Program-made: the position numbers and the translations under genes
Shown: one piece after another, positions 5,959 through 59,859 of the stretch
Numbering within the stretch: the first letter of the stretch is position 1
Layout of the letters: each line of letters begins with the position of its first letter
DNA from: Amoebophrya sp. A120
Lineage: Eukaryota > Protista > Dinoflagellata
Reading direction: 5' to 3'
NCBI GenBank assembly: GCA_905178155.1
Contig: CAJINV010000011.1
Coordinates: 1,385,216 to 1,449,215, forward strand
DNA: 64,000 bases
Notes under the pieces: generated by a model
The model's database searches: none
Seen by the model: the letters and a program-made list of their open reading frames with translations, nothing else
What the model was told of the DNA's origin: nothing

Positions 5959-6578
5959 TGACACCGAATCCGAATGGCGAGTCTCCGTCTGCAACTACTG
6001 CTGTAGAGAACTAAGAACTCAGCGACGATCGTCGTCGAAAAGTGCTCTAAGAATGTGCCCTTCTTTCATCGAAGGTAGCTGCTACATGATCTGCAGAACT
6101 ATTGTTGAACCTGAAACGCAGCTTCGCTGCCAACACGAGGTCCACCGCCCTGAGTCTGATGAGCAAAAAAAAAGTGAAGAGCTTCTGAAGTGAGATCGAT
6201 CTTCGTACCATCTTTGGTTCTCACTCTCAGCGGAACTCAGAAAACGAAACTAGATCAGCAAAGCAAAAACATCCTTTTCTTCGAACGTAATCCGGTTCCA
6301 GAACCTGATCCTTCAACAAGCTCTCGAATCGGATCTGGATCAGAAATTCTGGCAAGCATATGGAATTATGCTCGTACTACCGTAACAAGACGATGACGAT
6401 CATCGACCCCTCTGCTCCTCCATGCTTCACCTTACAGCGACATCATTTTACCAAAGCCTGTGAGGAGGTGTCTAACTATTTCGATTGCGATTCGGACGGC
6501 ACAGCGGGCCATACGGTTTCCTATAATTTACCCTGATCTTTTATTCACGAGTCTCACATATTTATTTCCAAACCGAAA

Positions 6579-9128
6579 ATGCCCGAAGAGGTGGATGGCT
6601 CAATGCAGTGGTTGGTTTCAAAAACCAGGTTTCGAAACTCAACCTTCCACTGTGTGCATTTCGACGTGTACCAGAGCTGCGATGAGAATGCCGCGAACAA
6701 AGGCAACTGCAACACCAGCGTCTCCGCATCATCAACAAGTAGTCCCCTACGTCGACACCAACCCCTGATTGAGCAAGTGCAAAAATCGCAGATTCTGGAC
6801 GTGAAGAGATTCGCGCATTCTGTCTGCCTCGACCGGCTGAACTACCTCGCACCGTGGCTGGTGTTGAAGGAGTGTGTTTTGTCTTTGGTGCTGTTGATCC
6901 AGGAGCAGAATGCACTGCAAGACGAACTGGAGAACGATGGGATTGTACTAGAGCAATCGCGCAAAGCCGCTGATACCCCAATTACTGGGGCGGAAAAACA
7001 TGCGGTGAAAAAGACGAAAGCGAAGAAGGCTTTGGAGTTGAAGAAACTCAACGAAAAAATCGATGCGATCGCGGCGATTGTGAAAGCGTCGGGGCGGTTT
7101 CAGTACTACACCGACAAAGCAATGGAAATCAGCAAGCACTTGTCCCTTGACGCATTGGAAACCGTACGGGACTACTGTTGCGTAGAGCTGAAAGGGCGCG
7201 ACGAGGACGATTTTCATAATGCAAGTAAAGGTGGTCAGAATTCTCATTCTAGAAAACCCGCCGACAACGACCGTCAAACAAAAGCAGCAATAAAGCGGAA
7301 ACAGGAGTTTGCGAAAGCTTTTGGCGCCTGGCTTTGGAACTCCGAATTTGTTTACGACAATGCGAAGCCAAAACCCAGTGCGAACCACAATCACCTGACG
7401 ATCGAAAATGCCGGGTCATTGATGAAGCGATTGTTTGCGCCGGAGGACGAGCGAAGGAGCTGCGGCCACGGCTACATCTTCGAGGATCCGCAGGCTGTGG
7501 ACGTGGGGAAAAAGGTGGTAAGCACGATTCGTGAAGACGAGGATGATGGTGAATGCCGACCTGAAATGGTGGAAAGTGATTCTGAGGACGAGTGGGACCT
7601 GTTTCAAGAGTTCGACCAGCGAACGCTAAAGCAGCTGGCAAATTATAACGACAGCGCGGCGGCCAGGTCAGGCGATAATCCACCAGAAGTAGAGCAAATA
7701 AAGCAGAAAACAAGCAAAAGTAGCGGTCAGAAAGTCAAAGCGCGGGCGAAGCTGGTAGAAAAAATCAAGCAAAAGAAAGGCGCGACGGGAACCACAGAAG
7801 AAGTAGAACGGCTAAATAAAGCAGACGTGGACAGCACGATCACGACGAAGGAAGCTGCAAATAAATCTCAGGAGTCGCTACCACCAGCCACGACTTCAGG
7901 TGCGGCGGGTTTGCGCGTCTCACAAGCGTCACTTCTGGAAGAACTCTTCCCGCTGCTGTTCGAATGCGAGCTGCAGGAGCAGCAGCAGTGCGAACACGAA
8001 GTAGACGATGACGCAAAGACGGAGAGCACCGCGACACCGTCTGCGACACCTACGAAAATAACGACAACGGCTGGCGTTGACAGCTCCTCTTTAGTGGTCC
8101 CGTCTCAGTCTACTCACCAAGTTCTACATCAAGTAGAAGAAAAGTCTCGAATTTTCGCAACCAAACCTAGTCACGACCTGCTCCCAAACCTCCACCATTC
8201 CCTCACGAAAGCAGAAGACGAAATCGGCGCGGTGCTTTGGCGCGACGGGTGCGACCGCATGTTGAGCTTCCTGTCAACAGTCACGCCGAGTTGGAAGGAC
8301 ATTTCCGTCATCGAACTCGGCGCCGGCTGTGGCTATGTGGGTCTCGCGTTGGCAAGTGAAGGGGCGGAGGTTTGTCTCACCGACCTGCCGGAAATGGTGC
8401 CGCAGATGAAAATTGGCCAGTATTTGAGTCTCAAATCCTGTCCGAATATGTGGGCGGAATGTTTGGTAGCAGCTTCTCATGGTGGCAGAGGCGTAGGCTC
8501 CTCCAATACAGCTCCGTCTTTCGGCTCGGAGATCGAAGCTGCGATCCGGGAAGGCAGCAGGAACAAAGGAGCTGTCGCTGCCACGACAAAAATGCCTGAG
8601 CCAACAACTGCACCACCATCTACCTCGTCCCGCGGCCAGCCGATCATAGAATACCGGCCCAAAGTGCGTGTCGAGGCGTGCGACTGGCGGGAGGAGAAGA
8701 TTCCGACGAACCCGAACGGAAATCAACAAGATGGCTTCCAGTACGTCATCTGCTGCGAGGTGCTCTACGGAGGAACCGAGGGCCGGAAAGCGTGGCCGGG
8801 ACTGAAATCGATTCTCGTGCAACTGGGGCAGAAGAAGGATTTCCGAGCGGTGTTTCTGACCGTGAATTTGCGGGTGGAGAGAGAGGATATCGACTGCTTT
8901 TTGGGAATGATCAAAGAGGAATTCAAAGTGATCAAAAAACTCGATAATTCTTCTGCGGATAATGTTGCCGCAAGAAGTGGTAAAGATAAAGAATGTAGAA
9001 GTACTTCTGACGGTAGGTCCCGCTCCGCTGAGGTAGAGGTTCTTGGCGCAGCTTCTTTGACCGACTTCGGTATCGAAACATACGCTTTTGCACACGACGA
9101 AAAGAAAATTTTCTGCTGCTCGACTTAA
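6579..9128 (+). CDS. SAM-dependent protein-lysine methyltransferase, METTL21/Methyltransf_16-like (single exon, 849 aa)
   Basis: IGAVLW, VIELGAGCGYVGLALA (motif I), VCLTDL, ACDW, YVICCEVLY. Confidence 0.85.
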   Translation: MPEEVDGSMQWLVSKTRFRNSTFHCVHFDVYQSCDENAANKGNCNTSVSASSTSSPLRRHQPLIEQVQKSQILDVKRFAHSVCLDRLNYLAPWLVLKECVLSLVLLIQEQNALQDELENDGIVLEQSRKAADTPITGAEKHAVKKTKAKKALELKKLNEKIDAIAAIVKASGRFQYYTDKAMEISKHLSLDALETVRDYCCVELKGRDEDDFHNASKGGQNSHSRKPADNDRQTKAAIKRKQEFAKAFGAWLWNSEFVYDNAKPKPSANHNHLTIENAGSLMKRLFAPEDERRSCGHGYIFEDPQAVDVGKKVVSTIREDEDDGECRPEMVESDSEDEWDLFQEFDQRTLKQLANYNDSAAARSGDNPPEVEQIKQKTSKSSGQKVKARAKLVEKIKQKKGATGTTEEVERLNKADVDSTITTKEAANKSQESLPPATTSGAAGLRVSQASLLEELFPLLFECELQEQQQCEHEVDDDAKTESTATPSATPTKITTTAGVDSSSLVVPSQSTHQVLHQVEEKSRIFATKPSHDLLPNLHHSLTKAEDEIGAVLWRDGCDRMLSFLSTVTPSWKDISVIELGAGCGYVGLALASEGAEVCLTDLPEMVPQMKIGQYLSLKSCPNMWAECLVAASHGGRGVGSSNTAPSFGSEIEAAIREGSRNKGAVAATTKMPEPTTAPPSTSSRGQPIIEYRPKVRVEACDWREEKIPTNPNGNQQDGFQYVICCEVLYGGTEGRKAWPGLKSILVQLGQKKDFRAVFLTVNLRVEREDIDCFLGMIKEEFKVIKKLDNSSADNVAARSGKDKECRSTSDGRSRSAEVEVLGAASLTDFGIETYAFAHDEKKIFCCST

Positions 9129-13139: not shown

Positions 13140-14126
13140 GCGAGGATTGGTGCATGGAGGACCTCCTGGAAGATACTACCAGACTGCTCCGGAGTAGTTG
13201 TGACAGTGTGGCTTTATTTTCGCGTGTCGGTTCTTATTTCCGCCGCTCGAACAATGACAGCACATTGCGAGGATATCGTCCTGTTGATGGAATATCGGAA
13301 TGCTAATGTACTAGCTGCTTCGACGCACAGGCAGAAGTTGCGTTCGATTCACAGCATCTTTTTCGTCGCTTCCAATAGGAGGCACCCCCACGAAAGATTG
13401 ATACGTTGTTCTAGCGGAGCTTTGTTTCGGATATCACAGGAACTCACTTGCGTTGGTCCTGTGATAAACGACGTGACGTCTTGAGAAGATAACTGCTCGT
13501 GCTTCACCTGCTTTGTTTTTCGATAGTCGGGATCACAGATGCTGAAAAAGTTTTTGCAACGTCCTGATTGCTTTATTTGTCCGAGTTTTCACATCGGTAA
13601 AGGTGATTCTTTTCTTGACCGAAGCTAATTTAAGCAACGTGATAAGATGAAGTTCCCACAAGGTGGACCGTAGACGTCAGATGCTAGAAGTGTGGTCGTC
13701 GTGACTGAAAGCGTCCGAGATCATCCTCCTCTTGCAGACAAGCAACCAAGGCTGTCGCAGGCTCGCAAACGGCTACTTCTTCACCACGTTTCCCGCACAC
13801 CATCGGCAAGTCAGTTTGGGGCACGGTTTTTCCGCTCGCGTTGCTGCAATAAGAAACCATAACCAATTTAATTCACCAGCATTTTTACGTCGACCGCGGC
13901 TGCGGTCATCTCACCACTTGAGGAGGTATCACAGCAGAAATTACATTTTTTTTTTCATGAGTTCCCTTCTTCTTGCGTGTAGTGAGCATGACCATGTTTC
14001 AAATGTCTCTTGCACTGCTGTTTTTTCCCCCGCACCCGAGGGCCGAGACAAAGCAAAAATAAAAATTGTCTAAACAGGTAGTTTTTCTCCGTGGATGTCT
14101 TGATCTTAAACCAGCTTAACATCGGT

Positions 14127-19005: not shown

Positions 19006-20112
19006 GTTTGAGTATGAGTTAGCACTTTGACTTCAGAAAAGCGACTTAGAAAAAGACGCGGCCTTCCTGTGTGCTCTAAGAGCTGTTTCCTCTTCAACAC
19101 AGAGTAGAGGAGATTCAAGCGGAATCTGAAAAGTTAGATTTGCCAGCGGTGCCAATTGCACGTGCAGCACAACCCCCAGGCATTTTTAGTGGATCGCTGC
19201 AATAAACAATCCTCAGGTTGCAGGACAACAACCACGAGGGGCACAGGAGGGCTCCCGACCGCTGCAGGTGCCCGAGGACAGTGGACCACTGGGGGAAAAC
19301 CACCCAGCGCCGGAAAAATGAGGCCGACTTTGCGCTCGGTTCGGGTTCGGTTTGTACTGTTTGGTGAGCATGGAAAGGACAGCCCTACATCGAGATAGTC
19401 GCAATGTCGCTGCTTCAGAACAAGTAGCAGATGCAGACGAACTAGTACAGCGAGTACATGGACAGTTTCGTAGTCGCTTCCTTAAGACAAAAAAGTGGGC
19501 TTTTCCTGCATGATAGTGGCGTGCTTGGTTTCGTCGCTGGGAACTGCATCTGTTCTTGCTTCGCTGATCTGTACGCGCTTCCAAATCGCAGAAACCGCCA
19601 ACAATAAAAGTTGTATGTTCCGGCGAAGCCCGGCTCAGTAGGACTTGGCGCTGCAACTGTTCGTGGTTTTGCTTTGTATGATGAAGGCTGCGTCGCCGTC
19701 GGCAGCGACGAAGTGTGACGAACATGATTCTATTTCGTTTTCGTATAGAAATTTGTTGGTCGGAACGTTCTTTCCGGTTTTGCACATTTTCATCTCCATC
19801 GGTGCCTTGCCTCCTTCGTAATTGCTAAATGTCATCTAAAGCAAGATGAGCAGAAGTTCCAACAATCATAGATGTCAGATGCTAGCGTGGAGGAGGTCTT
19901 CGCGATTGAAAGAGCCAGAGATCATCCTCTTCTTGCAGATCATGAAATAACAAGGACGTCGCCGCTACAAGCTTGTTCTACTTTTGGACAAGATCAACTG
20001 GTGACGCCGCAAAGATCATTTTTCTCTCCACGAAGGATCCAAGCGAGAAGCGCAAGCTGCGCGGCTGAAGATCACTTTCATCGGCCACCTAAGATACAAG
20101 TACAAACAAAAG

Positions 20113-23500: not shown

Positions 23501-26385
23501 CACTGTTGATCCGAAAAGAGCAAGACATCAACGACGGTGGGAGAATCGTGCTGGACCTACCCGCGATGGGGGTTGCGGATCCGAGCAGTGTCCTTTTAGG
23601 CACAAGTGTAAGTAGTCAAGAAGCTTCTGAACGACAAGATCCTGGCGCGGCGGACCGGTATTTCGCGGAAAAAGTTTTCGAGCGAAAGCCCTACAGCGAC
23701 AGTGAGGATTTCCTGCAAGAGATGTCGGACATGGCCATGCGGTACTGGCGCGTCGTGGACAAAAACGGGCGCCTGATTGGAGAGCCGGATCATGATCGTG
23801 GCCGCGATGAGGCAGAAACACAAGAAAAACACCTGCCACAGGATGGCGAATTTGACGAAGAGGGCGCAAGAACGCGGGAGCGAGAGGCACGAACAGATCT
23901 TCCAGAAACTGCAACACAAACCACGTTTGATCTTCTCAAACTCTCCCACGACGAGTCCAATTCGAACCTCTCTCCCTTCCCCCACGGCCGCAACTACACG
24001 CTGGAAATATTGACGGAGCAGGCCATTCGCATGCTCTCTATTGAAGGACAGATTCCGGACCATGTCGCGGCCTTGGGAAAGGGGTACGATGACATGAGCC
24101 GGGGGCTGGGAGAAAACGACGAGTCGTTTTCGCGAGTCATGTTCCACGGCCGCAAATTGTACGAAAAGTCCGGGTTTCGGGATTTCGTTTATGGTGATGA
24201 AGCGAAAGTTGGCGAACGAAACCAGCGAGGAGCAGCAAGCAAGGTATTAAGCATGACAGAAGGGAATAGTGATGAATGCGACAAAGCATCAGCCGGTGCA
24301 AAAAGAACGGGACCAGCAACAGCATCATGTTCGTGGCGGTCCGGCAGCTCTAGAAGTGTCGCTCCCACTCCTACCAGCAGCGCCCTCTTCTCCCCCTCCT
24401 CCTACCGGAACCCGCCGACTTTTGAGTTCGTGGAATCAACTTCGTTGTCGAAATCCAATTCCGCGGACTACCAGAGTTTCGGCGCTTTCAAGGCGGTCGT
24501 GATGTTTCCCTACGCCTACACGCAGTTTTGGTTTTTCGAACTGTACTATCAAAAGGAAAAATCCCCCCTCCCCATATCGAAATGGAAATCTGTGATGCGG
24601 GATTTGGGTACACAAATCGGCTCTGCCTTGCAGTGAAAGACTGCAACCAGATACAAAGCCGGAGTAGGGGCGCTTTGGTCTAGGCGCGTGGCAAGACAGG
24701 CGTATCCTCCGTAGGCCATCCAGCATTACAAATTGCTTTCAGAACGCGGAGGAGCCTTTGGATTTGCCTTCTTGCAACACAGAGACGATTTGTGGTCTCA
24801 AATCGGCATCATAGGGGGGAACTAAGGCTCATCGGATATCATGGGGAACTAAGGCTCAAATCGGCAACATCACAAATTTTAAGAAGTGTCCCTGTTTAAT
24901 ATGGGGAGGGGAGATTTTTCCTTGCAATATGTACCACATCGGCGTCCCGATTTTTCTGCCGGAGAAACGAACCTTGCCACTCTACGTGGGCCAGGACTTC
25001 ATCCGCTTCCAATTTTACGTGATTTCGGATCAAGTTCCTTGTCGAGGAGCAGCAGATCAGGAAAATAACGACGACGTCCCGCCAGCACCAGCAGCCGCGT
25101 CCCACGAGTACCACCCGTTTTTAGAACACGCCAACCTCCGCGCCTTCCTCTACTGGGTGCAGTTCTGCGAATGGGTCTCTTGGCCGTTCATCACGGAATT
25201 TGACAGTTTGCGAGGCTTGGTGGAGCACTTCAACCCGAACAGTGACTCCGCGGGGAAGCTAGCGCAAATTTCCCGCAAAATGCGGCAGTTTTCGCAGAAA
25301 GTCACCATGGACAACGCGGCGAAGTGGCGGACGGGACTGGCCGCGGTGCTATCGGTCCCGGTCGCAGAGCGGAAACCGATAACTCTTGCAAGAAAACCTA
25401 GTACAACCGAGATTTCAACGTCTGGTCCTGTCGCTGAAGGTTCCTACTTTTTCGGCGACCTTTCGACGCACCAGCCCTGCGGGGGCAGCCCGGGACGGGA
25501 CGACAGTCCCACACAGAAAGCGAACGACGGGAAAATTCTGCAAGACCACCCGAATGAATACCACATATGCATTACAAATTTCAACCTACCGCGCAGCTAC
25601 ACCGACAAAACGCATCGCAAACTTTGTAAAAATACAAATATCCACTTCAGAGCATTATATCAATCTACAACTTGGCAATCGCAATCTACTGAGTAATAGG
25701 GTAGTTCATGATGCAACTAGAGAAAAAAATCTCACTCTCAGATGAAACTGCGTTTGTTTGTGTGCGTTGTGTCCGAGAAATTTTTTACTGTGCATACGCC
25801 ACGAACGAAAACTACATGCAGCCCGGCGAGGACGCGTTTTGGTGGGTGCAGTTGCGCGAGCACCGGAAAGTGGTCAATGTCACGATTTGGGCACGGGATT
25901 GCTGCTCCGAGCAGATGATGCAAGCAGCAGAGGAACTACGTGTTGAGACCTCCACACCAGAAGTGCCAGAAAAAGCGCAGCATCCAACCCTCGATCTGTA
26001 CCTGTCCGTCGACAGCAACAGTTTAGAGGATGCAATTTTCTGTGGCCAAGTGAAAAACATCGAAGACGGGTCGATTCGGAGCGGGTTATGCGACGTGAGG
26101 GAAGTCGTCACGAGCGAAACCGAAACCGAAAGTCAAAGTGACCACGATCACGAAAGGAAGCACACTGGAGGTCGTGTTCCAGATTCCTATGATGACTACA
26201 AGAAGCAGTTGCTCGACGAGGTCGGGGGCAACGTGTTGTTCGTGGTGAACCGAGCGAAGAAACGGGACGGAATAGTTCCACCTCCGGAGCCCGCAAGTTT
26301 GATGCTTCCCGAGGTGTTGGTGTCGGATGTTGGATGGGTGCCGGACCGATACCAGATGGAGGCAGGGGAATTGGTGGTTCCCTGA
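20511..26385 (+). CDS. Large protein with a putative glycosyltransferase-like region and a C-terminal F-type-lectin/discoidin domain; 6 exons split by 5 introners
   Basis: ORFs 19872/20993/22532/23122/24929/25708 join in frame after removing five introners. KANDG...YHT...FWWVQL...VVNVTIWARDCC fits an F-type lectin fold. The GT-like call (FKAVVMFPY...ELYHIGVPIFLP) is weaker, and the start codon is uncertain. Confidence 0.7.
20847..20999. mobile_element. Introner (family A, reverse orientation)
   Basis: tatcctgtgcaaaag...cttttgcaatgcata; DR tccgt. Removing 158 nt gives WLHFR-FNTKMG. Confidence 0.92.
22493..22754. mobile_element. Introner (family B, tgtctgggtctgg TIR)
   Basis: tatgcactgcaagaatgtctgggtctgg...ccagacccagacatttttgcaattcata; DR actcc. 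Removing 267 nt gives VSYS-AQQIT. Confidence 0.92.
22794..23114. mobile_element. Introner (family C)
   Basis: tattgtgaggaaaaatcccc...ggggatttttcattttgata; DR gccga. Removing 326 nt gives VDEP-KLAQQ. Confidence 0.92.
24547..24929. mobile_element. Introner (family C, opposite orientation to 22794-23114)
   Basis: tatcaaaaggaaaaatcccc...gatttttccttgcaata; DR tgtac. Removing 388 nt gives FELY-HIGVP. Contains an internal duplication of ggggaactaaggctca. Confidence 0.92.
25566..25796. mobile_element. Introner (degenerate)
   Basis: tatgcattacaaatttc...gaaattttttactgtgcata; DR ccaca/cgcca. Removing 236 nt joins ORFs 24929 and 25708. Confidence 0.75.
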
Positions 26386-27202
26386 AAGGAAGTCTATGCA
26401 TATTGATTTTATTTCGCAGTGCCAGTACTCATACTCAATGCCGAGGAAGACCAGTAGTTAAGTACATGATAGATTTAGATAGTAGAATAGAATGAAGGTC
26501 ATACAAGAAGCAGAAGAAAAGACTACGAACCGAAAGAATAAGAAAACCGCATTAATACTCACATTACCACGGGAACTACAAAAATGGAAACCACCCTTTT
26601 TTGAGATTAGATAATTCGAAAACTTTCGAGTTTTCATCGTGCTTGGCAACCTGCTGTTGTCGTTGAAGATGCTGTCGGACATAGTACCTAAAAAAACAAA
26701 ATATATCTTCCGTCAAGTCGTCACATAAGGGTCGTAAGTGTGGGGTATAATTAGGAGTCGTCATCGTCGCAGGGGGAGGAGTCGTCATCGTCGCAGTGGT
26801 CATCATTTGAATTTTTCACGCGTATGTCTACGATTCCGTCTACGTTCGGTTTTGGTGTCGTCCTTTACATACGTATTTGTTTTGCATTTATGGGCGTGGG
26901 CGTGCACCAGGGAAATGTATATGACAACCGCTAAAAAAATAGCTCGTTGCAGAATGCCACACTTGTAAGCAGGAAGCGGAAGATGAACAGCTCCTACACT
27001 TGTACGTCGTGGATCTTTCAAGAAGTAGAGCGCGATCTTCTCGGAGTACTAGATGAACCAGCGACTGCAGCGAACTCAGGATCTCTTTTTTTTCTGCCAC
27101 TCGGCCACTTCTACGTCTCAGTCGTGCCCACTCGGGCACTAGGTTCGTGGCAGCTGCATTCAAGTATTGTGCAAAACAGGGACCACGTTGCCCTTGAACG
27201 AA

Positions 27203-28177
27203 ATGTTTTCGAAACGTCAACTCTGCCCAGCGCGACTGGATGTGCTGGCTCCTACCCCTACAGCGCGATCAAGGAAGATCTTCCTGACCATAATTCTCGC
27301 ATGGGTCTACATTCTGAGCCAGCATCAGGTCTCCATTGTTGACGCGCTAGATCCGCAGAAGATACAACAAGGTGACCAAGATGAAAAGCAAGCACAAAGT
27401 CCAAGACGAGAACCTGGTGGTCGTTCATCCGCACCAGAGAACAACGAGGTAGAAGGAGCTCAGTACCACGTGCCTTCGACCGAGCGCCAGTCGTCCACCG
27501 CGAGTACATCAACCACGGCGAGTGGAGGGGCAGTTTTGAAGAAGCAAGAGAAAAAAGAGGAAAAACAAGGCACACATGATCGACTCAACAGTCCGCTGGA
27601 CCACCACCAGCTTCAGGGCAAAGCCAAAGACCGCGGTGAGGAAGAGCATAAGGGAGATCACCAAACTTCTTCTGCCGGTGAAGATCGTCATCAAGCCGAC
27701 AGCACGACAGCGGCAGATGGTGATCGTGCTCTGAAGCAGAAGCTGCGCCATGGTAAGAACAACAAAATGCGGGAAGGTCCTCGCGGAAATGAAAAGACAA
27801 GGAGAAACAATAAGACGGGAGACATTTCATCCCGTGCTGAACGCGCTTCCTCATCTCGGCAAGAGCAAGATGTTGACCACGAAGCTCATCGTGCATACGT
27901 TCAGCAGGGTCACGTGTTTCTGTGCGGTGGGTTCGGGGTTCTTCTGTTTCTCCTCTCGCTTGTGCTCTTGTATTTTTGCGCTTGTCATGTACAAGAGAAT
28001 CAGGTGCACGGCTCGTGGGTGGCGATGTTCAGCAGGTACAGCACTAGCGGCCCCTACACGGAACAAGTTGTTCAAGTTTCTGAGCATGACCATTATCCGA
28101 CAGCACAACCAGAAGATTCAACATCGCACCACGACCACGAACGACGAACAAAGAACAAAAGGCCGCGGCACAAGTGA
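27203..28177 (+). CDS. Hypothetical type-I membrane protein
   Basis: N-terminal hydrophobic segment (IFLTIILAWVYIL), a charged low-complexity middle and a TM helix (FGVLLFLLSLVLLYFCAC). Confidence 0.6.
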   Translation: MFSKRQLCPARLDVLAPTPTARSRKIFLTIILAWVYILSQHQVSIVDALDPQKIQQGDQDEKQAQSPRREPGGRSSAPENNEVEGAQYHVPSTERQSSTASTSTTASGGAVLKKQEKKEEKQGTHDRLNSPLDHHQLQGKAKDRGEEEHKGDHQTSSAGEDRHQADSTTAADGDRALKQKLRHGKNNKMREGPRGNEKTRRNNKTGDISSRAERASSSRQEQDVDHEAHRAYVQQGHVFLCGGFGVLLFLLSLVLLYFCACHVQENQVHGSWVAMFSRYSTSGPYTEQVVQVSEHDHYPTAQPEDSTSHHDHERRTKNKRPRHK

Positions 28178-28429
28178 CCGGCGACGTGTTCTGAAAGAAG
28201 AACGACGGCCACGAGGAAAAAGCGTGCTAGGCGCAGCTCCGGAGTACACGGCAAGCGTTGGGCTCGACCCGAAGTCTTGGTGTTGTAGATGAAACGTTGG
28301 CTGGTTCTTTCTATTGAAAGTTGCGATCAAATTTCGCATGGTCGAACAAGAGCAAAAGAAAACTAAATGTTTTTCTCTGTCGTAGTTCACAAGCACGAGC
28401 GACGTCGTGGATAGAAATTGTCGACAGTC

Positions 28430-29330
28430 CTATCTATGGAGGCGGGTCGTTCTCTACGACAAAAAAAACAATAGAGCGCAGCAGCAGCTTGCTTGCGCCC
28501 CTGGCCAATTGCTGTTGGCTTCTTTGACATTGCGTGGCGGGGCTTTAGTATTCAGATTTTTTCGCGCCCATTCCTTTTGTGGCGCGCTTGCGGATCGCAG
28601 TTTTTCACTTATGACTCCGCTCTCTTTCGGTGGTGCTTGATGTATTTCCTCCTGATGTGGTTTCTAAAAAGTCATCTTGGTGCTAACCACACCAAGAAAA
28701 GCTTCTGCTCCACTAAGAAGAGAAAAATACGATGGCACTACAACGCGGAAGGGGGGATCCAGCGAGTTAGTATCAGTCGAAAATCGACTTACACGCGAAT
28801 TTCGACCTTCCTGGTGTCAGTGACACGCGACTGAACCTAAAAGAAAATCCATCTGCCGAGTTCAGTTTCACGTCGAAAACCGACGGCGCGCTGGATCGCC
28901 GAAAACTCCCTTCCGCAACACAAATTTTCGAACCTTTCTGGGAGCTAAAACAAATTCCCTCTGCTACGGCCCTGTTTCTTCAGGGTGTCATGGAAAAATT
29001 TTCACGCGCTGCGCGCACGGAAATGCCCTCAGCGCCGTGCGCCCCCACGCGTCAAAAGAAAAAACTCGCTCGCGCGCCGCGCGCGAACCACTTCAAACCA
29101 TACCAGACTTCGCCGTGCAAGAATTACGTCTGTCACGGTCAAAAAAGTAAGAGACTAAGAAGCCGCGCTTAAAATCAAATTTGGCCAGTCGAAGCATTTT
29201 GGATTTTTGAAATCCGATTTTGGATCGGAGTAAATCGCTGAGGTTTTGCGACGACCGGATGACCGACCGCACCTACCCCCCCCTTCTCGATACCGAGAAG
29301 GGGGTCGATTAATCGTACGGGCTCCTAAAA
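28430..29330. mobile_element. Non-coding insert ending in a 26-nt GC hairpin plus a 26-nt tail (..ctcctaaaa)
   Basis: Bounded by 61-bp units; hairpin cccccttctcg-atac-cgagaaggggg at 29279-29304. The same end architecture recurs at 30687-30738. Confidence 0.6.
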
Positions 29331-29391
29331 GTTTTTCTCTGTCGTAGTTCACAAGCACAAGCGACGTCGTGGATAGAAATTGTCCACAGTC

Positions 29392-30358
29392 TTGCCCTGC
29401 GGTTTCGTGTTGTAAAATATTTCCTCGCCGAAGCGAAGAAGTTTGGCCGTGTCGAAGTCCTCACCGTAGGCTTCCCGGTGGGAGTTGCTGCCATTCAGGC
29501 ACTTTCGCGGCATTATCGACAAACAGAAAACGTAGTGCTTTATCGCATAGCACCACAATTTTTTCGGCAGTCCGGAGTCAGCGATGAGTGTTCTTGTGCC
29601 CGCGAGGGCCAGCTTGTTCAACACCTCCGCGCCGCCATTCATCGGCGAGGAGTAGTAGGAGGTGAAGACTTGGACTATTCTGTTAGCCCGGCACTCGGCC
29701 CGGAACCGCTCCGAAATAAATTCGCCACCATTGTCCGACTTCAGCCGGCGCGGGGCGGTGTGCTTCGCGATCCAGAGTCGCAGGCCATTGACGCTGTCAG
29801 CCTTGCGGCGCAACGGCGCCACCTCCGGCAGCCGCGTCTTCTTGTCCGCTATGGTCATCGCAAATTTGTGTCCGTGTATGGACTCCGGTAGAATTGGGCC
29901 GCAGAGGTCCGTGCTGATTTCGTCATTGAATGTCAGTCGGCCCTCGTACTGGTCATCCCGCGGCCCCGCCCGGTGTGGAGCCTTTGCTGCTCTGGAGATC
30001 GTGCAACTCTGGCAGAACCCGCGGTATGGCAGTATGTGTGCGCTGCGGCAGTGGTCTTCGTAGCTGTAAGTTAGACACGTGTGCTCCTCCTTGGAGGTAT
30101 TTTTGTGGAAAACTACATAAAACAAACCATTTTGGAATCTATGAATGCTAACGCTCTTCTTCTCCTGGCCGGGGAGGAAGAGCTTTGTCAGGTCCGTGCT
30201 AAAGCGAAATCCTTTCTGCAGCAAAATGCTGACAGAAAGAATGTTGAAAGGGATACTTTCGTTGAAAATCGCCCTGCTGATTACGATCAGCAGGTTGTTG
30301 TTAGCCAGCGGCTTGGGTTTGCATATTGGTGCCTTGACTGGCTCACCGAATATGCCCG
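29392..30358 (-). mobile_element. Ty1/copia pol fragment (end of protease region, HHCC zinc finger, complete DDE integrase core); no LTRs, gag or RT
   Basis: NILSVSILLQKG, NGLFYV, HCRSAH...CQSC, ISTDLCGP, LKSDNGGEF, MNGGAEVLNK, SGLPKKLWCYA; reading frame uninterrupted. Confidence 0.92.
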
Positions 30359-30408
30359 AGTTCACAAGCACGAGCGACGTCGTGGATAGAAATTGTCGAC
30401 AGTAGGCC

Positions 30409-30657
30409 ATCCTCCGTAGGCCATCCAGCATTACAAATTGCCTTCAGAACAACGCGGAGGAGTTTTCGGATTTGCCTTCTTGCAACACAGAGACGATGTG
30501 TGGTGTCAAATCGGCATCACAAATTTTAAGAAGTGTCCCTGTTTAATATGGGGAGGGGAGATTTTTCCTTGCAATATGTACCACATCGGCGTCCCGATTT
30601 TTTTGCCGGAGAAACGAACCTTGCCACTCTACGTGGGCCAGGATTTCATCCGCTTCC
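30409..30657 (+). repeat. Displaced copy of 24704-25010 (3' half of a family C introner plus about 80 nt of the following exon)
   Basis: Near-identical sequence including the ..ttgcaata|tgtac junction and YHIGVPIFLPEKRTLPLYVGQDFIRF. It lacks the ~60-bp internal duplication of the source. Confidence 0.95.
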
Positions 30658-31441
30658 GGGAGGTTGGTCTCCAGCGGGCCGCTACCCCCCCTTTCGCCAT
30701 GGCGAAAGGGGGTCCAATTGTTGCACAGCCTCCTAAAAGTTTTTCTCTGTCGTAGTTCACAAGCACGAGCGACGTCGTGGATAGAAATTGTCGACAGTCT
30801 GCCAGCACGTCTATGCTTCCATCTTTGGCAGATGCTGCGGACTGTTGTTTCACTCAGATGCACCCTACTTCGTTTCCGCATGGTGCTGAGGATCATGGAG
30901 TCTTGTATTTGAAAAAAAGCGATCATGCAGCATGGTACCTGCACTAGGACACAACATCATGCTGGAGGAACGCCATTTATTCATGTTCTTCGTCAGAATA
31001 TTTTGAATGGCGGCTGTTCACGACCTCCGGGAATAGCAACTTCTTTCATTTCTGATGTTGGATTTGGATCTACTGCATAGGCGCAACTACACCGTAAAGA
31101 TCAGACTCACTAACTACGCGTTCAGCTGCAGCAGAACCCATAGAAAACCGTAGAGGGAGGTGGTTGAAACTTTCATTTTTACTTGACAAGTTTTGATGGT
31201 CTCGAGGAGTGCCTGCACAGTAAAAAATACAAACGCAACCTTCTTTCCATTGATCCTGTTCTTGTTCCAAAATGAGAACGTAACCACAATCCAGCTGCGC
31301 CACCGGCTTTCCTTTGTTTTGTACTTCGGCCTAATTTCATTTTTGAGCACTACTGCACTTTCTTGGGCTTCTAGTACTGGTTCACCACTTTGACGAACGT
31401 ACTTTTTCCAAGAAAAAAAAAGCAGAAATAGAGAACCGATC

Positions 31442-42230: not shown

Positions 42231-42492
42231 TATCAGATGCAAAAATGTCTGGGTCTGGAAGAGTGCGCCACTTGTCATGCAGCTTTTCCATGACCCATGA
42301 GGCTTGGAATGCAGGACCCAGCATGACAGATTCTGTGCGATCTCTCTCATGCCTGTCCTGCATGAGAAACTCCCTCCCGACTTGGTCAAAACTGGACGAC
42401 TCTTGGTAATCATGCAACACAGATTTTTGCATGCTTCAGATTTTGCATGACAAGTTGCATTCTTCCAGACCCAGACACTTTTACATTTGATA
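42231..42492. mobile_element. Introner (family B); host gene unresolved
   Basis: tatcagatgcaaaaatgtctgggtctggaag...cttccagacccagacacttttacatttgata; perfect DR tacta. Confidence 0.9.
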
Positions 42493-42557
42493 TACTACCA
42501 GCAGGAGAGTTACAACCACGAGAAGCCGGCGGAGTTTCTGCATTGCTGCTAGGACTA

Positions 42558-43332
42558 TACAAGTGCACAACTCCCCCTCCCCCTCGAAATATTAGTATTT
42601 GAATATTTATTTGGTTACCAAATAGCGCGCTTCTATGTCACCAAATAATGCGCTTGTATGTCATCAAATCGCGCACATTTCGACCCCAAATGCGGAGCGT
42701 TTGCGTTGCTTTTTGTGCGACCAAAAGCGTCGCAAAAGTTTGCACTCTCTCGCTATGCTGTGAAAGCTAATCGCGATGGTTTAGGCTCGCTCTCCCTCAC
42801 CAAAGCTGTCCACTTCCCCTCATGAGGGGGAGTGGGCCCATAGCATCGCGATTAGCGATCAAAGAGTAATATTTTTTGAGCTCATTTCCGAGGTCCCTAA
42901 AAAGTCCCTGATTTGACGACGCAAAGCCTCATGATTTGGCGAGCATTTGCCAGATGAAGTTTGGCAACTTATCAAGTTACACGCAGAAGAACGCCCGGCC
43001 TTCTCTTTTGGTTGCTGCCGTTTCCTTGTTCATTCCTGACGCAGTCATCTGGCCCCGATTTCTGCGCCAGATGTGCGGAGATCACAGGCCTCGTCCTCGA
43101 CTCGACCGGTCAAAGGCGTGAAGGCGCTCCGGAAGCGCGGGCTTTTGCTTCGCGTTTGCTGCCACCAAACGCAACATAATCGCTGCGAGCTTGGAGGCGA
43201 AATGTGCGCGATTTGATGACACAAAAGCGCATCACTTGGCAACATACAAACGCATTATTTGGTAACCAAAAAAAATTTGATATATTATGAAATAGTAATA
43301 TTTTGAGGGGGAGGGGGAGTTGTGCACTGTTA
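42558..43332. mobile_element. 775-bp non-autonomous TIR element (family D-like ends) flanked by a 65-bp duplication
   Basis: TIR agtgcacaactccccctccccctcgaaatatta / taatattttgagggggagggggagttgtgcact, with further inverted blocks (tcatcaaatcgcgcacatttcg). Flanks 42493-42557 and 43333-43397 match at 61/65. Confidence 0.9.
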
Positions 43333-44890
43333 TACTACCAGACGGAGAGTTACAACCACGAGAAGCCGGCGGAGTTTCTGCATTGCTGCTAGTACGACGA
43401 CGGTGTCCGAAGAATGTGGAGTCTGGGGGGTGAGCACGAAAATAAGAAGACCAATATCGAAGCTGCGCGATACTACCACCAGCACCACTTCCACAGATTA
43501 TTTGTACCTGTCTTGAGACGTCGGCCTCATCCACATTATTTACTTTTTTGTTTTCTTTTTACCTTTAATTTTGTTTTCATAGCATGTTTACATAACCACC
43601 TTAACCAGTCCTTTAACTTGAATATTTTGCACCATTTCAACATTCACATTTCAAACTAGAAGTACCGCAATTCTTAAACGTTTTGGCATCAAAGAAAAGA
43701 AATACTGAGAACTGTAGTAGAATGCCGATAAAATTAAAATACACCGACCACGTAAGTAAAGAACAACCAGAACAGAAGCACTAGTAAAGAGTTTCGTGAA
43801 CAAGTTGTGCAGACGAGGGGTAACAATTTCTTTCTGCACGCAGGAGCGCGACAACAAGAAGTACTACACTATTTTATTCGCCCAGAGAAGAACGAGAGGG
43901 CTTCTTTTCTGCAAAAGGAAATGCGTGCCCGTGCGAGCCTCTTGCGGGTGCGGCGTCGCGCGGTGGTGCTCGTGTCGGTTGCATTTGATACTGTAACTTT
44001 CGGAAGTGCAGCACCTGTTCCACCACACCCTCTGAAAGTAAGACGTTTTCCGAAAAACGACCTCAGATCGCGGCGGGCGAACGAGAAGATGAAAAGATTA
44101 CATCGTTGGCACATGATAGAATTGCAAAATAAAACGTTTGATGTGCTGTCGTCCATTCGGTTTCGCTGTATGAGCATATTCTTACCACCTGGTAGGGTTT
44201 TTCGGTTTGCTTTTTTTTGTTTTTTGTTTTTCGGTTGTCAGTATTTCGTTCAAGAAGTGCACCTGGATTCGGTTACGCCTCATAAGTCGTGATAGAGATG
44301 AATAAATCGGGACCGGCCTGCGATCGTCTAGACGACGTGGAAGACGACCACGTAAAAATACGGAGCCGCCGCGTTTGTGTAGCTCTATCAAAACACTAAA
44401 ACACACATCAACAAAGCATCACATGAATACACACATCAAAACACACAAAAGGACCCTTCTCGCCCGATTGCTTTTTGATGAAGCTTTAACTTGTAATATT
44501 ATCTTTCAAAGAACAAGCCATGCATTTTTTACGCCTAATATAGATGGGAAGACCCAAGAAATTGAAAAAAGAACCTGCATCTTCTCAAAGTAATTGCAAG
44601 AACCTACAGATGAACAAGAAGTGTCTGGATAGTCTACAACTATAATTAACGGTAATTATCTGGTCGTGCTCCTTATTCTCGTCGTCATTGCATCTCCGAA
44701 GAAAAGACTAAAATTTTCCTGATAACACGTCCCTTCACTGTACTGCCTGGCTCAGCCAGCACGAAGAAGGCAAAGCTTTTGCCGAAAACGCCGCAAGTAT
44801 CAGCCCCATGCTGCGACGAAAGGCAGGAGCTGCGCAGTGGTTGTTGCTGGGATCATGGTCCGGTTCTGTTTTCGGGGTGGGTGGCATCGG

Positions 44891-45339: not shown

Positions 45340-46932
45340 TACTACACTCGTCTCAACTGTTGTTACACGAATTTGCGATGCAAAACGAGCAAAAGTCGTG
45401 CAGCGAGGGAGCCTGATGCGTCGTCGTGTCCCGCATTTTCAAAAAAAATTCGGCACAGCTTATTTCCATGGCATGCCGTTTAGCGCTTCAAGAATATGTC
45501 ATGCCAAGTTGGCCCGCCGTGGAAGGTCGGCAACGGCCGCTGTTCCGCCGTGGCTGGTCTGCCACATCTGTTGGTCTGCCGCTGCTGGTCCGCCGGGCGT
45601 GGCAGGTTGTCCGCAGCTGTTGATCCGCCGTGGCTGGTCTGCCATACATTGCTGGCCCCCCGTGCCCGTTGCAGGTCTGGTCGATGCCACCGTTGGCCCG
45701 CCATGGCACTTTTGCCGCAGCTGCTGTTCCGCCGTGGCTGGTCCGCCCTGGAAGGTCTTCAATCCCGCGCGCTTTTCTTTGGGAGTTGGCCCCGAGCCCT
45801 TTCCGAGCTGGGTCGCTTCCGTTGTGTTTGCCTTGGGAAATGCGCGGAAGCCTTCCCCCGATTTTCGCAAAGCCCTTCGCCACATGCACATGGAGGCTGG
45901 GCTGCCGCGGCTGGTCTGCCACTGCTGGGTGGCCCGCCGTGGCAAGTCTGCCGCTGCTGGTCCACCGGGCGTGGCAAGTTGCCCACCGCTGCTGATCCGC
46001 CGTGGCTGGTCTGCTATTGCTGGCCCGCCGTGTTTGTGGCAGATCTGGCGCCACCGCTGGTCCGCCATGGCACTTCTGCTGCAGCTGCTGGTCCGCCCTG
46101 GAAGGTTTGCCAAGGCTGCTGTGGCAGATGCCACCCACAGATGGTCTGTTGTGGCCAGAGCTGCTCCGCCATGGTACATGGTAGGTCGGCCACAGGAGTC
46201 GCTGAGCCGCAAAATGGAAGGTCTGCCAGGACTGGTCTGCCATGGGTTGCCTGCCGTGGCTGGTTTGCCACGCACTGCTGGTCGGACCAGCCATGCATGG
46301 CAGGCCTGGGGGCCCGCCATGGTAGGTGTGCCGCAGCTGGTCCGCAATGGCAGGTCTGCCGCAGCTGCTGGTCCGCGCGCCATGGCTGGGCTGCCATGGC
46401 TGGTGGGTCTTCCATGGCTGGTCTGCCGTGGCAGGTCTTCTCCTTACTGCTGGTTCGCCATGCATGGCAGGCTGGTTTGCCATGGCAGGTCTGCCACAGC
46501 TGCTGGCCGGCCTTGGCCGGTCTGCTACAATTGCTTGGCCCGCCATGGCTGGTCTACCACAGCTGCTCCGCCATGGCAGGTCTGCCGCAGGAGCTGCCTG
46601 TCCGCAAAATTACAGGTCTGCCACATCTGCTGGCCCGCCATGGCTGGTCTGCCATGGCTTGTCTGCCGTTGCTGGTCTGCCAGGCACTGCGGGTCCGCCA
46701 TGCGTGGCAGGTCTGCCAGTGCCATAGCTGGCCCGAAGTTGGAAAAATGTTTGTCGGAGTTGGAGAAGTTTTTTGATTTTTTTTTTTTCCTTAGTTAACA
46801 TTTCTATGGCATGCCGTTTAGCGCTTCAAGAATTTGTCATGCCAAGTGGAGTCTTGATTGTGCGGAGGCTGATAGGTTTTTTGCACCACGACAAATCCCG
46901 ATGTATTAACAGTTGTTGAGAGCAGTGTAGTA
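45340..46932. mobile_element. Introner carrying a nested 1.3-kb insertion
   Basis: TIR tactacactcgtctcaactgttgtta / taacagttgttgagagcagtgtagta; cgtt repeated on both flanks. Confidence 0.75.
45510..46799. repeat. GC-rich degenerate minisatellite insert (gccatggctggtctgcc / gctgctggtccgcc units) flanked by a 48-bp duplication
   Basis: Dozens of related short units and a T-rich right end. Flanks 45462-45509 and 46800-46847 match at 46/48. Confidence 0.9.
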
Positions 46933-49003: not shown

Positions 49004-50932
49004 ATGATGCTGCGAACCAAAACGGCCGCGCAGTTACTGCTGTTGGGATCATCGGCCGGTGGTCCCAATTTCAGCTTGGTGGGAGCGGTGGACACGGCGA
49101 AGGAGCAGTATGAATTGCAAAAATGTCTGGGTCTGGAAGATTGGAGCTTGTCATGCTAAAACCAAATCATGCAAAAATCAAAATCTGTGTTGCATGACTG
49201 CCAAAAGCTGTCCTCTTTCGACCAAGTTGGGAGGGAGTTTCTCATGCAGGATAGGCATGACATAGTCATAGATCTCACAGACTCTGTCATGCTAGGTCCT
49301 GCATTCCAAACCTCATGGGGCATGGAAAATATGCATGAGAAGTTTGCATTCTTCCAGACCCAGACATATTTGCATTTGATAAGCAGAACCGCGAATCCAT
49401 GTTGAACAAGCAGAAGGAAGGCTGCACCCCCGAAGCGAAGAACGAAGCAAAAACTGCCCCTGCTGCTGCTGCTGGTCCCTACGCTGATTTGACGTGCGAG
49501 GAATATGACAAGCTTCCGGTGCTGGCCAAAGTGAGCGTGCAGTGCGACAGCGGGGCTGCGTTTTATCGAGACGCATCGAAAATTGCGAAGCTTATCCTGC
49601 CGAAATGAAGTCTTGACGCTAAATAACAAGCCTTGACGTGGTGGTCGACCAGGGTGGTCGCAGCTACGCTGTGCGGTGCATGATTATAAAACAAAAAACA
49701 TAAAACTACAGCAGCAGCAAATAAGCGCAAGAACTGGTACCCCATTTTTACAGCATGATGACTATTTCATGTGAACAAGATAGAATAGTACATAGACAAC
49801 ATGCAAATCATGTATGTAGTCTGTCTCTTTCTGTTTGTTTGTAGTGCTCGCATCAGAAGACCAACATCATCGTCCGGAGCAGAATGGGCGCTCAAGGCTT
49901 AGCAGCGTTATTTCTTTATTTTCGGATAAGGTCGGGTCGAGTCGAAGAGGTCAAGAAGGCATGCTGCAAGATCGCCGAAGGTCCAGGCGGGGGTGCCTCC
50001 TTTCTCCAGCTATTCGAAGAAAAAGTTCCCCAACCCCTCAGGATTAGATAATCTGCGACGCTGGAATTATGTTGGTGTTGCACGCAAAAGAACTTGTCGT
50101 TGTTTCACGACCACGGCGGTGAAGTATTGGGATTTGCGTACTACACAAATTAGCTTTGTCTTGCAGCATTAAAGGACTGCAAGTAGATCATCTCAAGGTC
50201 AAGCCTGGGCACGGATGTTCTATGTATCCGGTGTAGGTTCTTAGCATGAAGACAGTTTGAGCCTATGCTGTGCAAACCGCGTGCATGATTATGCGGCGGA
50301 CTCTCTACTGTCTCTGAAAAATGTCGCGCTGCCCTCTTGGAAGACAGGCGCGGCCACAAATCAGCATCGAAAATCCTCAGAAGCATACGCACCTTTCCAA
50401 AATGGGGATGTCGGGGGATTTTTCCCCACGATAGGACACGGCGAAGAAGGGCCCAGAAGATGACAACAAGAAGGACGGCGGGGACGGCAAGGGCTGCTGT
50501 GGTGGGGGAAAGGATGACGACAAGAAGACTGGCGCGGCCTCGTTTCTTTTGACGGCGAAGAAGGGCCCAGAAGATGACAACAAGAAGGACGGCGGGGACG
50601 GCAAGGGCTGCTGTGGTGGGGGAAAGGATGACGACAAGAAGACTGGCGCGGCCTCGTTTCTCCTGACGGCGAAGAAGGGTTCAGGAGAAGACGAGGAGAA
50701 CAAGAAGGGCGAGGACGGCAAGGGCTGCTGTGGTGCTGCTGCTGGGGATGAAAAGAAAAACGGTGGCAAGACTGGTGCGGCCTCGTTTCTCCTGACGGCG
50801 AAGAAGGGTTCAGGAGAAGACGAGGAGAACAAGAAGGACGGCGGTTGCTGTGGGGAGAAAGCGGACGGTGGGAAGACGGGGGCCCCCAAGGCTCGGGCCT
50901 CGTCCAGCAGCACTTCCTTTGTACAAGTCTGA
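49004..50932 (+). CDS. Cys-rich secreted protein (paralog 4) with C-terminal KGCCG / ASFLL repeats; 4 exons split by 3 introners
   Basis: MMLRTKTAAQLLLLGS...GAVDTAKEQ-NRES...GC...LTC...VQC...IAKL-GRVEEVKKACCK...ASFLQ-AKKGPEDD...SSTSFVQV*. Confidence 0.7.
49109..49381. mobile_element. Introner (family B)
   Basis: tatgaattgcaaaaatgtctgggtctggaag...cttccagacccagacatatttgcatttgata; DR agcag; 278-nt removal is in frame. Confidence 0.92.
49593..49928. mobile_element. Introner (degenerate)
   Basis: tatcc..ccgaaatgaag / ctttattttcggata plus aaataac..gccttga / tcaaggc..gttattt; DR aagct/aggtc; 341-nt removal is in frame. Confidence 0.7.
50011..50433. mobile_element. Introner (family C, degenerate)
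   Basis: tattcgaagaaaaagttcccc / ggggatttttccccacgata; DR decayed; 428-nt removal is in frame. Confidence 0.7.
50437..50885 (+). repeat. About four coding tandem repeats (first two 114 bp)
   Basis: TAKKG(P/S)...NKK...GCCG...KTGAASFLL repeated. Confidence 0.92.
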
Positions 50933-59137: not shown

Positions 59138-59859
59138 AAGAGCGAAGCTCTACTGCTTACCCGTCGACTTCTAGATGAAACTACTACTACACGCCGCCGA
59201 GATAAAGACTAGACAGACTTGTTCGCAGCTCAGCACCTCCTGGGATCAGAAAACAACAGCGCCGCCATTGCGCAACGGGCAGGGCACGTGAAGTAGTGCT
59301 GGCTTTTTTGCATTTTGCTGTGCTCATTTCTACTTCAAATTATATCTACTCAGTGCCAGTTGTATCTACTTACACAGGTTGCACGTAGTAGCTTCGGCGG
59401 ACCGTAATTACACATAGACATTTATCGGCCTGTCGTACTTGTTATTGCGCTGCATAGCCGTGCAGATTTTCTTGAAATTCGATTTCGATGGTGGAGTTCT
59501 AGCGTGCCTAAAAAAGAAGCACTGGAACTGGCAATCTTTATTAGCGATTGACTATCCGGCACATGGAATAATGAATCATCTATCTTGCCAATGGAGGATG
59601 ATGAAGCAGCTAGCTGGCCTCTAGAAAAGAGCTCAAGCCGCTGCAGAACGTCGCACAGTGAAGCGATTTTTCCTCTTGGTTGTCTATTTATTACTACTTT
59701 TTTTTAAACATTATGATTATCTCGTCCAAGCTTCATACGATTCTGATTCAAAGAGCCCTGCCCTTGGCGTAGGGATAGGGTCTCGTCCGCAGGTCAGCTT
59801 TGTCGTGATGAAGAAACAAATGATCTTGGTGGCCCTAACTTTTTCTATTTGCTTTAGCC

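Follow-up and report, generated by a model that had tools for sequence, protein, structure and literature searches.

A probable scar of iterated sequence capture behind a gene of Amoebophrya sp. A120

The array X-A-X-B-x-C-X, located behind a gene of the dinoflagellate Amoebophrya sp. A120, is most readily understood as a non-adaptive scar, left when a template-jumping polymerase copied foreign pieces into a single staggered break. We assign this reading a probability of roughly 0.68. In the window, by which we mean the whole 64-kb stretch of DNA analyzed, five further unrelated inserts lie between long direct repeats, compared with none in 10 block shuffles. The repeated unit X probably represents ordinary host sequence in the form of a long target-site duplication, and on the best reading of the sequence the array may consist of three captures of this kind with a common right breakpoint (within 1 bp).

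Layout of the array and its support in public contigs

Self-comparison of the 64-kb window established the order X-A-X-B-x-C-X and reproduced the layout previously proposed from the letters alone, including its coordinates, its lengths and the 45-bp partial copy. The unit occurs as X1 (28369..28429; 61 bp, the inferred original target copy), X2 (29331..29391; 61 bp), x (30359..30403; a 45-bp part of X with the same letters as X1) and X4 (30739..30799; 61 bp), with no strand assigned to any of them. Units X1, x and X4 show no differences over their common part, and X2 alone has diverged, by two substitutions. The right end is common to all four copies (within 1 bp) and the left ends vary, giving lengths of 61, 61, 45 and 61 bp; a leftward extension of 6 bp with one mismatch, corresponding to a microhomology at 28363-28368, brings X to 67 bp. 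The inserts between these copies measure 901 bp (A), 967 bp (B) and 335 bp (C). The stop of the upstream host gene lies about 190 bp before X, and the last open frame of this gene (27143..28177, plus strand) has no Pfam match; in run X1 as well as run X3 the cover continues to 28398.

X appears to be local host sequence lying behind the gene, neither an LTR nor a CRISPR-type repeat. Its summed depth is low (178 in run X1 contigs), and among the 6 of 23 loose ends listed the sole one at X, behind 28429, is the window's own right flank. A search of the whole window against Rfam gave no match at gathering score and, over X, nothing even at E<=1; X therefore does not correspond to any known multicopy RNA-gene target, and an RNA-gene-targeting element of the R2/CRE/R9 type was rejected on the same results. 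One weak U6-like Rfam match is present in the window, outside the array. The unit begins with GT and ends with TC; an inner stretch of 49 bp has TG...CA ends, but no breakpoint falls there. X also contains an inverted repeat of 6 bp.

Public contigs from runs X1, X3 and X7 were compared with positions 27900-31200, and those of run X1 also with 28300-29480. Runs X1 and X7 derive from one sample, maybe the assembly's own source, and run X3 from a second study. Copy numbers rest on these public contigs only, with summed depth taken as a rough guide to copy number. Counting a junction as bridged when a contig holds 31 letters on either side of it, five of the nine junctions are bridged: X1 to A in run X7, X2 to B and X4 to the right flank in run X1, and x to C and the gene copy of C to its hairpin piece in run X3. 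Three more (left flank to X1, B to x and C to X4) show a 30-letter overlap only, as would be anticipated when a repeat interrupts the contig graph, and the left-flank contig indeed stops 30 letters inside X1. The junction of A with X2 is absent among the contig pieces listed (8 of 62), and no listed piece spans the whole array. X4 directly abuts the unique right flank (contig 30769-31200), and the private substitutions of X2 are confirmed by a contig of run X1 covering 29329-29450 with 0 differences at a depth of 37.

The array might in principle be an assembly artefact, a gap-filling chimera, which the sequence-only reading had itself named as the outcome that would undo its case. Such a chimera could leave the array unspanned and one junction unseen, and the assembly may itself derive from the best DNA run. 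The bridging of five of nine junctions, two of them in the second study, the contig-confirmed substitutions private to X2 and the mutual differences between other long-repeat copies in the window make this explanation very improbable, and no chimera was found in the public contigs.

Contents and donors of the three pieces

Piece A (28430..29330, plus strand) is a low-copy repeat with at least two other copies, and no Pfam match was obtained in the two frames tested. One listed A contig has a different left flank (loose end 28427), sharing only 3 letters with the end of X; this flank is like the end of X over about 11 letters, with one gap. The terminus of A (29255..29330, plus strand; fold z -2.4), with a 26-bp hairpin at 29279-29304 and an A-rich end, belongs to a dispersed family with differing upstream bodies, as seen in loose ends before 29251, 29255 and 29258. 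In run X1 the summed depth of the family is about 1050-1290 vs 29 in the unique flank, with 15 contigs at 29290, and drops to 70 at 29340-29379; the family ends before X, and another of its copies runs on with other letters after 29320. C closes with a second hairpin-ended piece of 81 bp (30658..30738, plus strand; fold z -2.7), whose hairpin, a perfect palindrome at 30687-30712, differs from that of A, yet is again 26 bp long. In both bodies the hairpin is GC-rich and lies about 25 bp short of the end, a pattern with two occurrences in the window against 0 expected (100 shuffles). A metagenome scan with the hairpin end found 0 matches.

A and the 81-bp piece share the same right end, possibly the 3' end of the element, where the depth of the family stops. 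The family tail consists of four A followed by G, and a long poly(A) is absent; in the available portion of PMC2488372 a short dinoflagellate poly(A)-site motif AAAAG/C is described, which the A-rich end of the family resembles. Terminal inverted repeats (TIRs) within A alone were rejected, with 256 of 300 shuffles scoring equally high (8 of 300 when X2 is included). The first 40 bp of A are similar to X in reverse, a post hoc observation in which 7 of about 2000 random segments reach an equal score and which a reading of multiple captures leaves unaccounted for.

Piece B (29392..30358, minus strand) is a fragment of a Ty1/copia pol gene, comprising the pre-integrase region and the integrase core in an open frame. 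Its identity to two full copia polyproteins is 46% and 43%, and it spans about residues 19-348 of a 1079-aa homolog, with both ends mid-ORF; the rve match in Pfam is weak (E 1.2e-4, below the Pfam cut-off). The full copia homologs, which align over 99% of the query, carry PF00665, PF07727 and PF25597 and have the integrase upstream of RVT_2. Other, diverged copia copies in run X1 differ from B at between 10/479 and 32/233 letters. No PBS or PPT was seen by eye at the junctions of B, and a viral-contig scan with B returned 14 matches, none of them confirmed. Because both ends of B fall within the ORF and B directly abuts X, X cannot be the LTR of B; an identity of X with a copia LTR was rejected on this incompleteness and on the low depth of X. 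The possibility that X is a dispersed LTR of complete copia elements, which the sequence-only reading had put forward against itself, was likewise not found among the 6 of 23 loose ends listed. X as a continuation of the copia coding sequence was also rejected: it supplies six residues vs two in both homologs, and then a stop. Read in reverse, X specifies the four residues that both copia homologs have after the breakpoint region, a coincidence noticed post hoc and matched by 42 of 17,524 random 61-mers.

Piece C begins with a gene copy (30404..30657, plus strand), in which a 5-bp slip is followed by introner (172 bp) and exon (77 bp) sequence matching 24704-25010. Its donor (24547..25010, plus strand) comprises a TIR introner at 24547-24933, with a short direct repeat, and the next exon of the neighboring gene; in silico excision of this introner leaves the host frame open. 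The copied part amounts to 249 bp, and a 61-bp stretch of the source is absent from it. The left 106 bp are less alike to the source (97/106) than the remainder (66/66 and 75/77), and to judge from these letters they may come from another introner copy. In the DNA run the introner part reaches a depth of about 10,900, and the depth of 36 at 30603 marks the exon part as low-copy, which identifies the donor as the neighboring gene in unspliced form.

These results largely agree with what had been claimed from the sequence. A was correctly described as 901 bp with a hairpin end; B was rightly recognized, as the polyprotein alignments confirm in spite of the weak rve match, as a 967-bp minus-strand copia integrase fragment without LTRs. 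For C, described as about 250 bp copied from 24704-25010 plus an 81-bp hairpin end, both the copy and the hairpin stand, and the description needs correction in that the copy is mostly introner, with the exon contributing the smaller share.

Long duplications, junctions and competing explanations

The five further inserts with long duplications, located by self-comparison at 1652-2452, 42488-43395, 45462-46847, 54646-55580 and 59746-60169, have repeats with ungapped cores of 46, 62, 48, 48 and 33 bp (52-55, 68, 48, 48 and 44-45 bp when gapped). One carries a likely LINE 3' piece, a C-terminal fragment at 1707-2400; two hold TIR elements of introner-like type, and the other two consist of minisatellite-like sequence and of nearby DNA in a diverged copy. 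The LINE-like unit, with a repeat of 46-55 bp, contains a CCHC-like motif and appears 5'-truncated. Its first Atlas match, 'RT zinc-binding domain' (score 0.95), has a recognition value of 2212, under the 2300 mark, and is a lead only; Pfam was negative, no long or full-length relative and no solved structure were found, and Pfam, homolog and structure searches with this piece identified no autonomous LINE. The TIRs of the two introner-like elements resemble local introner ends (0/300 shuffles each), and these elements carry repeats of 48 and 62-68 bp; in 15 of the 16 inverted-repeat-bounded stretches listed in the window the border repeats measure 4-6 bp, and the remaining one has the long repeat. 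Insertion sites with a 44-68 bp duplication occur at a density of about one per 10 kb of window, and the six targets (the array and the five units) have no common motif by eye. Since the five other inserts carry such varied cargo, duplications of this length appear to be a general signature of insertion here.

Junctions with a known donor show microhomology of 2-6 nt. Three letters are shared between X1 and A (relative to the other A contig), two between x and C, four at the internal slip and four where the gene copy of C jumps into the 81-bp piece of the hairpin family. Both hairpin ends meet X where the original flank fits their last letters at 6 of 7 positions, a pattern found 14 times per 128,000 positions. 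Divergence from the donors is near 1-2% (2/77 for the exon, 2/232 and 1/151 for A, 10/479 for B), and this similarity throughout is consistent with the capture of all pieces in one period. Two of the routes suggested earlier, template jumping and templated break repair, fit these junctions, and a third, rolling-circle capture, fails on the target duplications of 45-67 bp. A likely target-site duplication is present on both sides, as in TPRT insertion. No empty site emerged from two metagenome scans, one with the hairpin end and one with the host protein; the latter matched 593 stretches, none of which was confirmed.

In the mechanism that we propose, a staggered break with complementary 3' overhangs of about 45-65 nt would have formed at the 3' end of the gene, and a polymerase would have primed on any template pairing with the end of an overhang. 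Candidate templates are repeat RNA, with entry at the A-rich end, unspliced pre-mRNA or DNA from the vicinity, and copia RNA or cDNA. Through a template jump the polymerase would then have returned to the target upstream and recopied X. Three such cycles, within a single event or following each other quickly at a fragile gene end, would have left the array, most likely as a by-product rather than a selected device. One iterative event, or quick succession, is favored because independent hits within 1 bp are unlikely where no target motif is present. The sequence-only proposal that one site was opened repeatedly, with the target doubled and unrelated DNA added each time, is thus supported, with a single iterated repair event as the variant.

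Within this reading, our own judgement gives a LINE reverse transcriptase an even chance of being the enzyme involved, regards a host repair polymerase as a tentative second candidate, at about a third of the weight, and considers any other enzyme unlikely. In favor of a LINE reverse transcriptase are the presence of this signature around the LINE-like unit and the fixed, A-rich terminus of the hairpin family. A host repair polymerase is kept in play by the reversed orientation of B, by the copying of C from an unspliced donor and by the cargoes that are whole TIR elements, and a single RNA-only route needs extra steps because B is opposite to A and C and because C holds an unspliced introner. 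Whole TIR elements, present in two units, would be an unusual LINE cargo and speak against a reading of multiple captures. The two coincidences with reversed X, at the start of A and in the copia residues, hint, post hoc, at a choice of donors through patchy complementarity to X. A bolder version, which we consider a long shot, would make this a capture pathway of the genome's own, with overhangs of 45-65 nt choosing donors by patchy complementarity and pasting any free nucleic acid, including whole introners, which would thereby gain a second route of spread independent of a transposase. Here the pathway would have iterated until it had built a repeat-spacer locus, with a transcript that stops in X and silences copia in antisense.

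The array could alternatively have arisen by separate site-preferring insertions, with an endonuclease or the hairpin family recognizing X, the duplication regenerating the target and the site being hit again over time. This would agree with the identical left breakpoint of A and C and the common right breakpoint, with the X-like flank of the other A contig and with the target duplications known for CRE, R4, R8 and R9 (PMC3636483, in the portion available). It is nevertheless unlikely, as the six long-duplication targets in the window have no common motif by eye, the window contains no Rfam family at gathering score, copia and part of a local gene are among the cargo, and the like divergence of all pieces points to one period. 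We hold it improbable that X, or its left part, is the terminus of a hairpin-ended element and the array a series of tandem element ends, of rolling-circle, Helentron-like or TRIM-like type. The GC-rich palindrome at the same distance from the end of two heterogeneous bodies, the similarity of the start of A to reversed X and the inverted repeat inside X would agree with such a terminus; the depth of the family, however, drops ahead of X (from about 1050 to 70), another copy diverges after 29320, no hairpin lies upstream of X1, and B and x have no element end.

Transcription of the locus, which bears on a possible role as a trap, may be visible in run X3; this run is RNA by guess, and its contigs give neither strand, ends nor level. 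Relative to the DNA run, its depth is 163 vs 10,900 for the introner and 10 vs 605 for the hairpin family. Its cover takes in the host gene as far as X1, then 29059-29261 and 29433-30768 with the letters of the array copy, at depths of 15, 22, 53, 72 and 77 that climb towards X4, and is absent from the unique right flank. The first half of A has no cover in run X3, an observation that carries no weight, and the same holds for the raw RNA run X9, which gave 0 reads over 27900-31200. In the bin of X4 the unexplained depth is 110, vs 109 for the sum of two incoming contigs. These figures hint that the transcripts of the host gene and of the array both end inside X, near the shared breakpoint, and an array transcript, if on the plus strand, could possibly be antisense to copia. 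A selected TE-trap or memory locus at the 3' end of the gene, whose antisense or small RNA silences copia and introners, would be compatible with this cover and its rise to X4, with the depth arithmetic and with the position of B on the strand opposite to the host gene. It is quite as improbable as an element terminus, given that run X3 is RNA by guess with strandless contigs, that the antisense coding fragment is a single case, that the identical insertion signature appears at five unrelated sites and that no processing genes were found among 35 distinct ORFs scanned against Pfam (a subset of the window's ORFs). With five long-duplication inserts of other cargo in the same window, the memory-like repeat-spacer device suggested from the sequence is unsupported; the accompanying remark that no cas-like genes are visible agrees with the scan of these 35 ORFs.

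Relation to known systems and significance

TE traps such as piRNA clusters, like CRISPR arrays, gather foreign pieces at one locus, and a CRISPR array has a constant repeat, short spacers of even length and cas genes nearby. The present array resembles them in holding foreign pieces at one locus, one of them antisense, with a repeat between them, and differs in its spacers of 335-967 bp, its host-derived and length-variable repeat and the absence of acquisition or processing genes among the ORFs scanned. A CRISPR-like array was rejected on these spacers, on a repeat of 45-61 bp and on the lack of any cas family in the 35 distinct ORFs. Helitrons and Helentrons make no target-site duplication, insert between A and T and carry a 3' hairpin followed by a CTRR end; they were rejected on the duplications of 45-67 bp and because the hairpin is present, but no T follows the CTRR-like word, which another copy lacks. 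Among site-specific non-LTR elements, duplications measure 49 bp for SLACS and 126 bp for R9. Target duplications are made by some of these elements, such as CRE, R4 and R9, and the array is like them in its long duplication and in the repeated use of one site (PMC3636483). It is unlike them in having no multicopy RNA-gene target, no target motif and a cargo that is not the element itself.

U6-L1 chimeras are reportedly another example of template jumping by LINEs. LINE-made chimeric retrocopies arise by a double template jump, as in the tripartite chimeras of Magnaporthe, and share with the array the fusion of unrelated templates, an element end on the right and a flanking target duplication (PMC2104539). 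Their duplication is 14 bp vs 45-67 bp in the array, which, unlike those chimeras, has the target recopied between pieces, one piece reversed and no long poly(A) (PMC2104539). Multi-fragment capture of Ty1 cDNA at double-strand breaks in yeast (PMC11372161) and tandem duplication from breaks with 3' overhangs (PMC8355091) match the array in a mid-element copia fragment, inserts from several donors, microhomology at junctions and a duplicated break region. For Ty1 capture, the available portion of PMC11372161 describes no long duplications separating the captured pieces, and in the array, unlike in break capture, the target brackets each piece and duplication lengths cluster at 44-68 bp across six sites.

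The intron architecture of the window is like that published for Amoebophrya, with many TIR introns bearing short direct repeats, half of one such intron being held in C (PMC7789003, PMC12130899). For introners, direct repeats of 3-8 nt are given, and for MITEs in general 10-15 bp (PMC7789003, PMC12130899, bioRxiv 10.1101/2020.10.14.339549), whereas two introner-like elements here carry 48 and 62-68 bp. In the portions available of the literature on this lineage, supplements apart, no report of duplications of 44-68 bp was found.

The array is probably a repair or retrotransposition scar, and the main weight lies on the long-duplication signature, whatever the cargo. A role in defence, weakly suggested by strandless contigs, would matter far more if true. 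The signature includes complete introner-like TIR elements, which otherwise have repeats of 4-6 bp, and the mode of introner movement has been described as unresolved in the accessible part of PMC7789003. Should the signature hold genome-wide, it would provide a countable test of a second, transposase-independent introner route, as well as a way for short stretches of exon to be duplicated.

Inserts flanked by direct repeats

Five inserts in the window, other than those of the array (28369-30799), lie between direct repeats of 44-68 bp. At 59746-60169, 336 bp between 44-bp repeats form a diverged copy (73%) of DNA roughly 0.9 kb away (60740-61059), and this insert is an older local capture of the same type as piece C, the array's copy from a neighbouring gene. 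Two stretches of ~105 bp (13632-13738 and 19839-19939), 6.2 kb apart, are 73% alike.

The 694-bp insert at 1652-2452, between repeats of 46-55 bp, probably derives from a non-LTR retrotransposon, whose C-terminal end it would represent, judging from a CCHC-like motif and a sub-threshold Atlas match (a lead); a short motif is repeated at the insert's right end.

Two elements bear terminal inverted repeats (TIRs) similar to those of introners, the TIR-bounded introns common in the window. The first (42488-43395; ~780 bp) has 183-bp TIRs similar to the local introner family, and its flanking direct repeat of 62-68 bp begins where another introner (42231-42492) ends. The second (54646-55580; 839 bp) has diverged TIRs of ~65 bp similar to another introner family, and its 48-bp direct repeat overlaps open frames on both sides.

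The GC-rich, minisatellite-like insert at 45462-46847 (1290 bp between 48-bp repeats) keeps several frames open on both strands. Several frames are also open at 50438-50844, where units of ~114 bp are tandemly repeated.

Coding and RNA-like features

A long ORF at 6537-9128 encodes a lysine methyltransferase domain (PF10294), its nearest other proteins, all unnamed, sharing 32-36% identity. The weak U6 snRNA-like match at 30880-30982, 80 bp right of the array's rightmost 61-bp repeat X, scores 17.5 bits (E 0.48) against a gathering value of 44 and has no ACAGAGA box; it probably reflects chance.

Composition of piece A

The first 40 bp (28430-28470) of A, the array's 901-bp repeat, resemble reversed X, to which the other A contig is one letter nearer at 28462, and a long-range inverted repeat spans 28745-28916. 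Because contigs join onward at ~28930 to introner-like sequence, A may contain an introner remnant.
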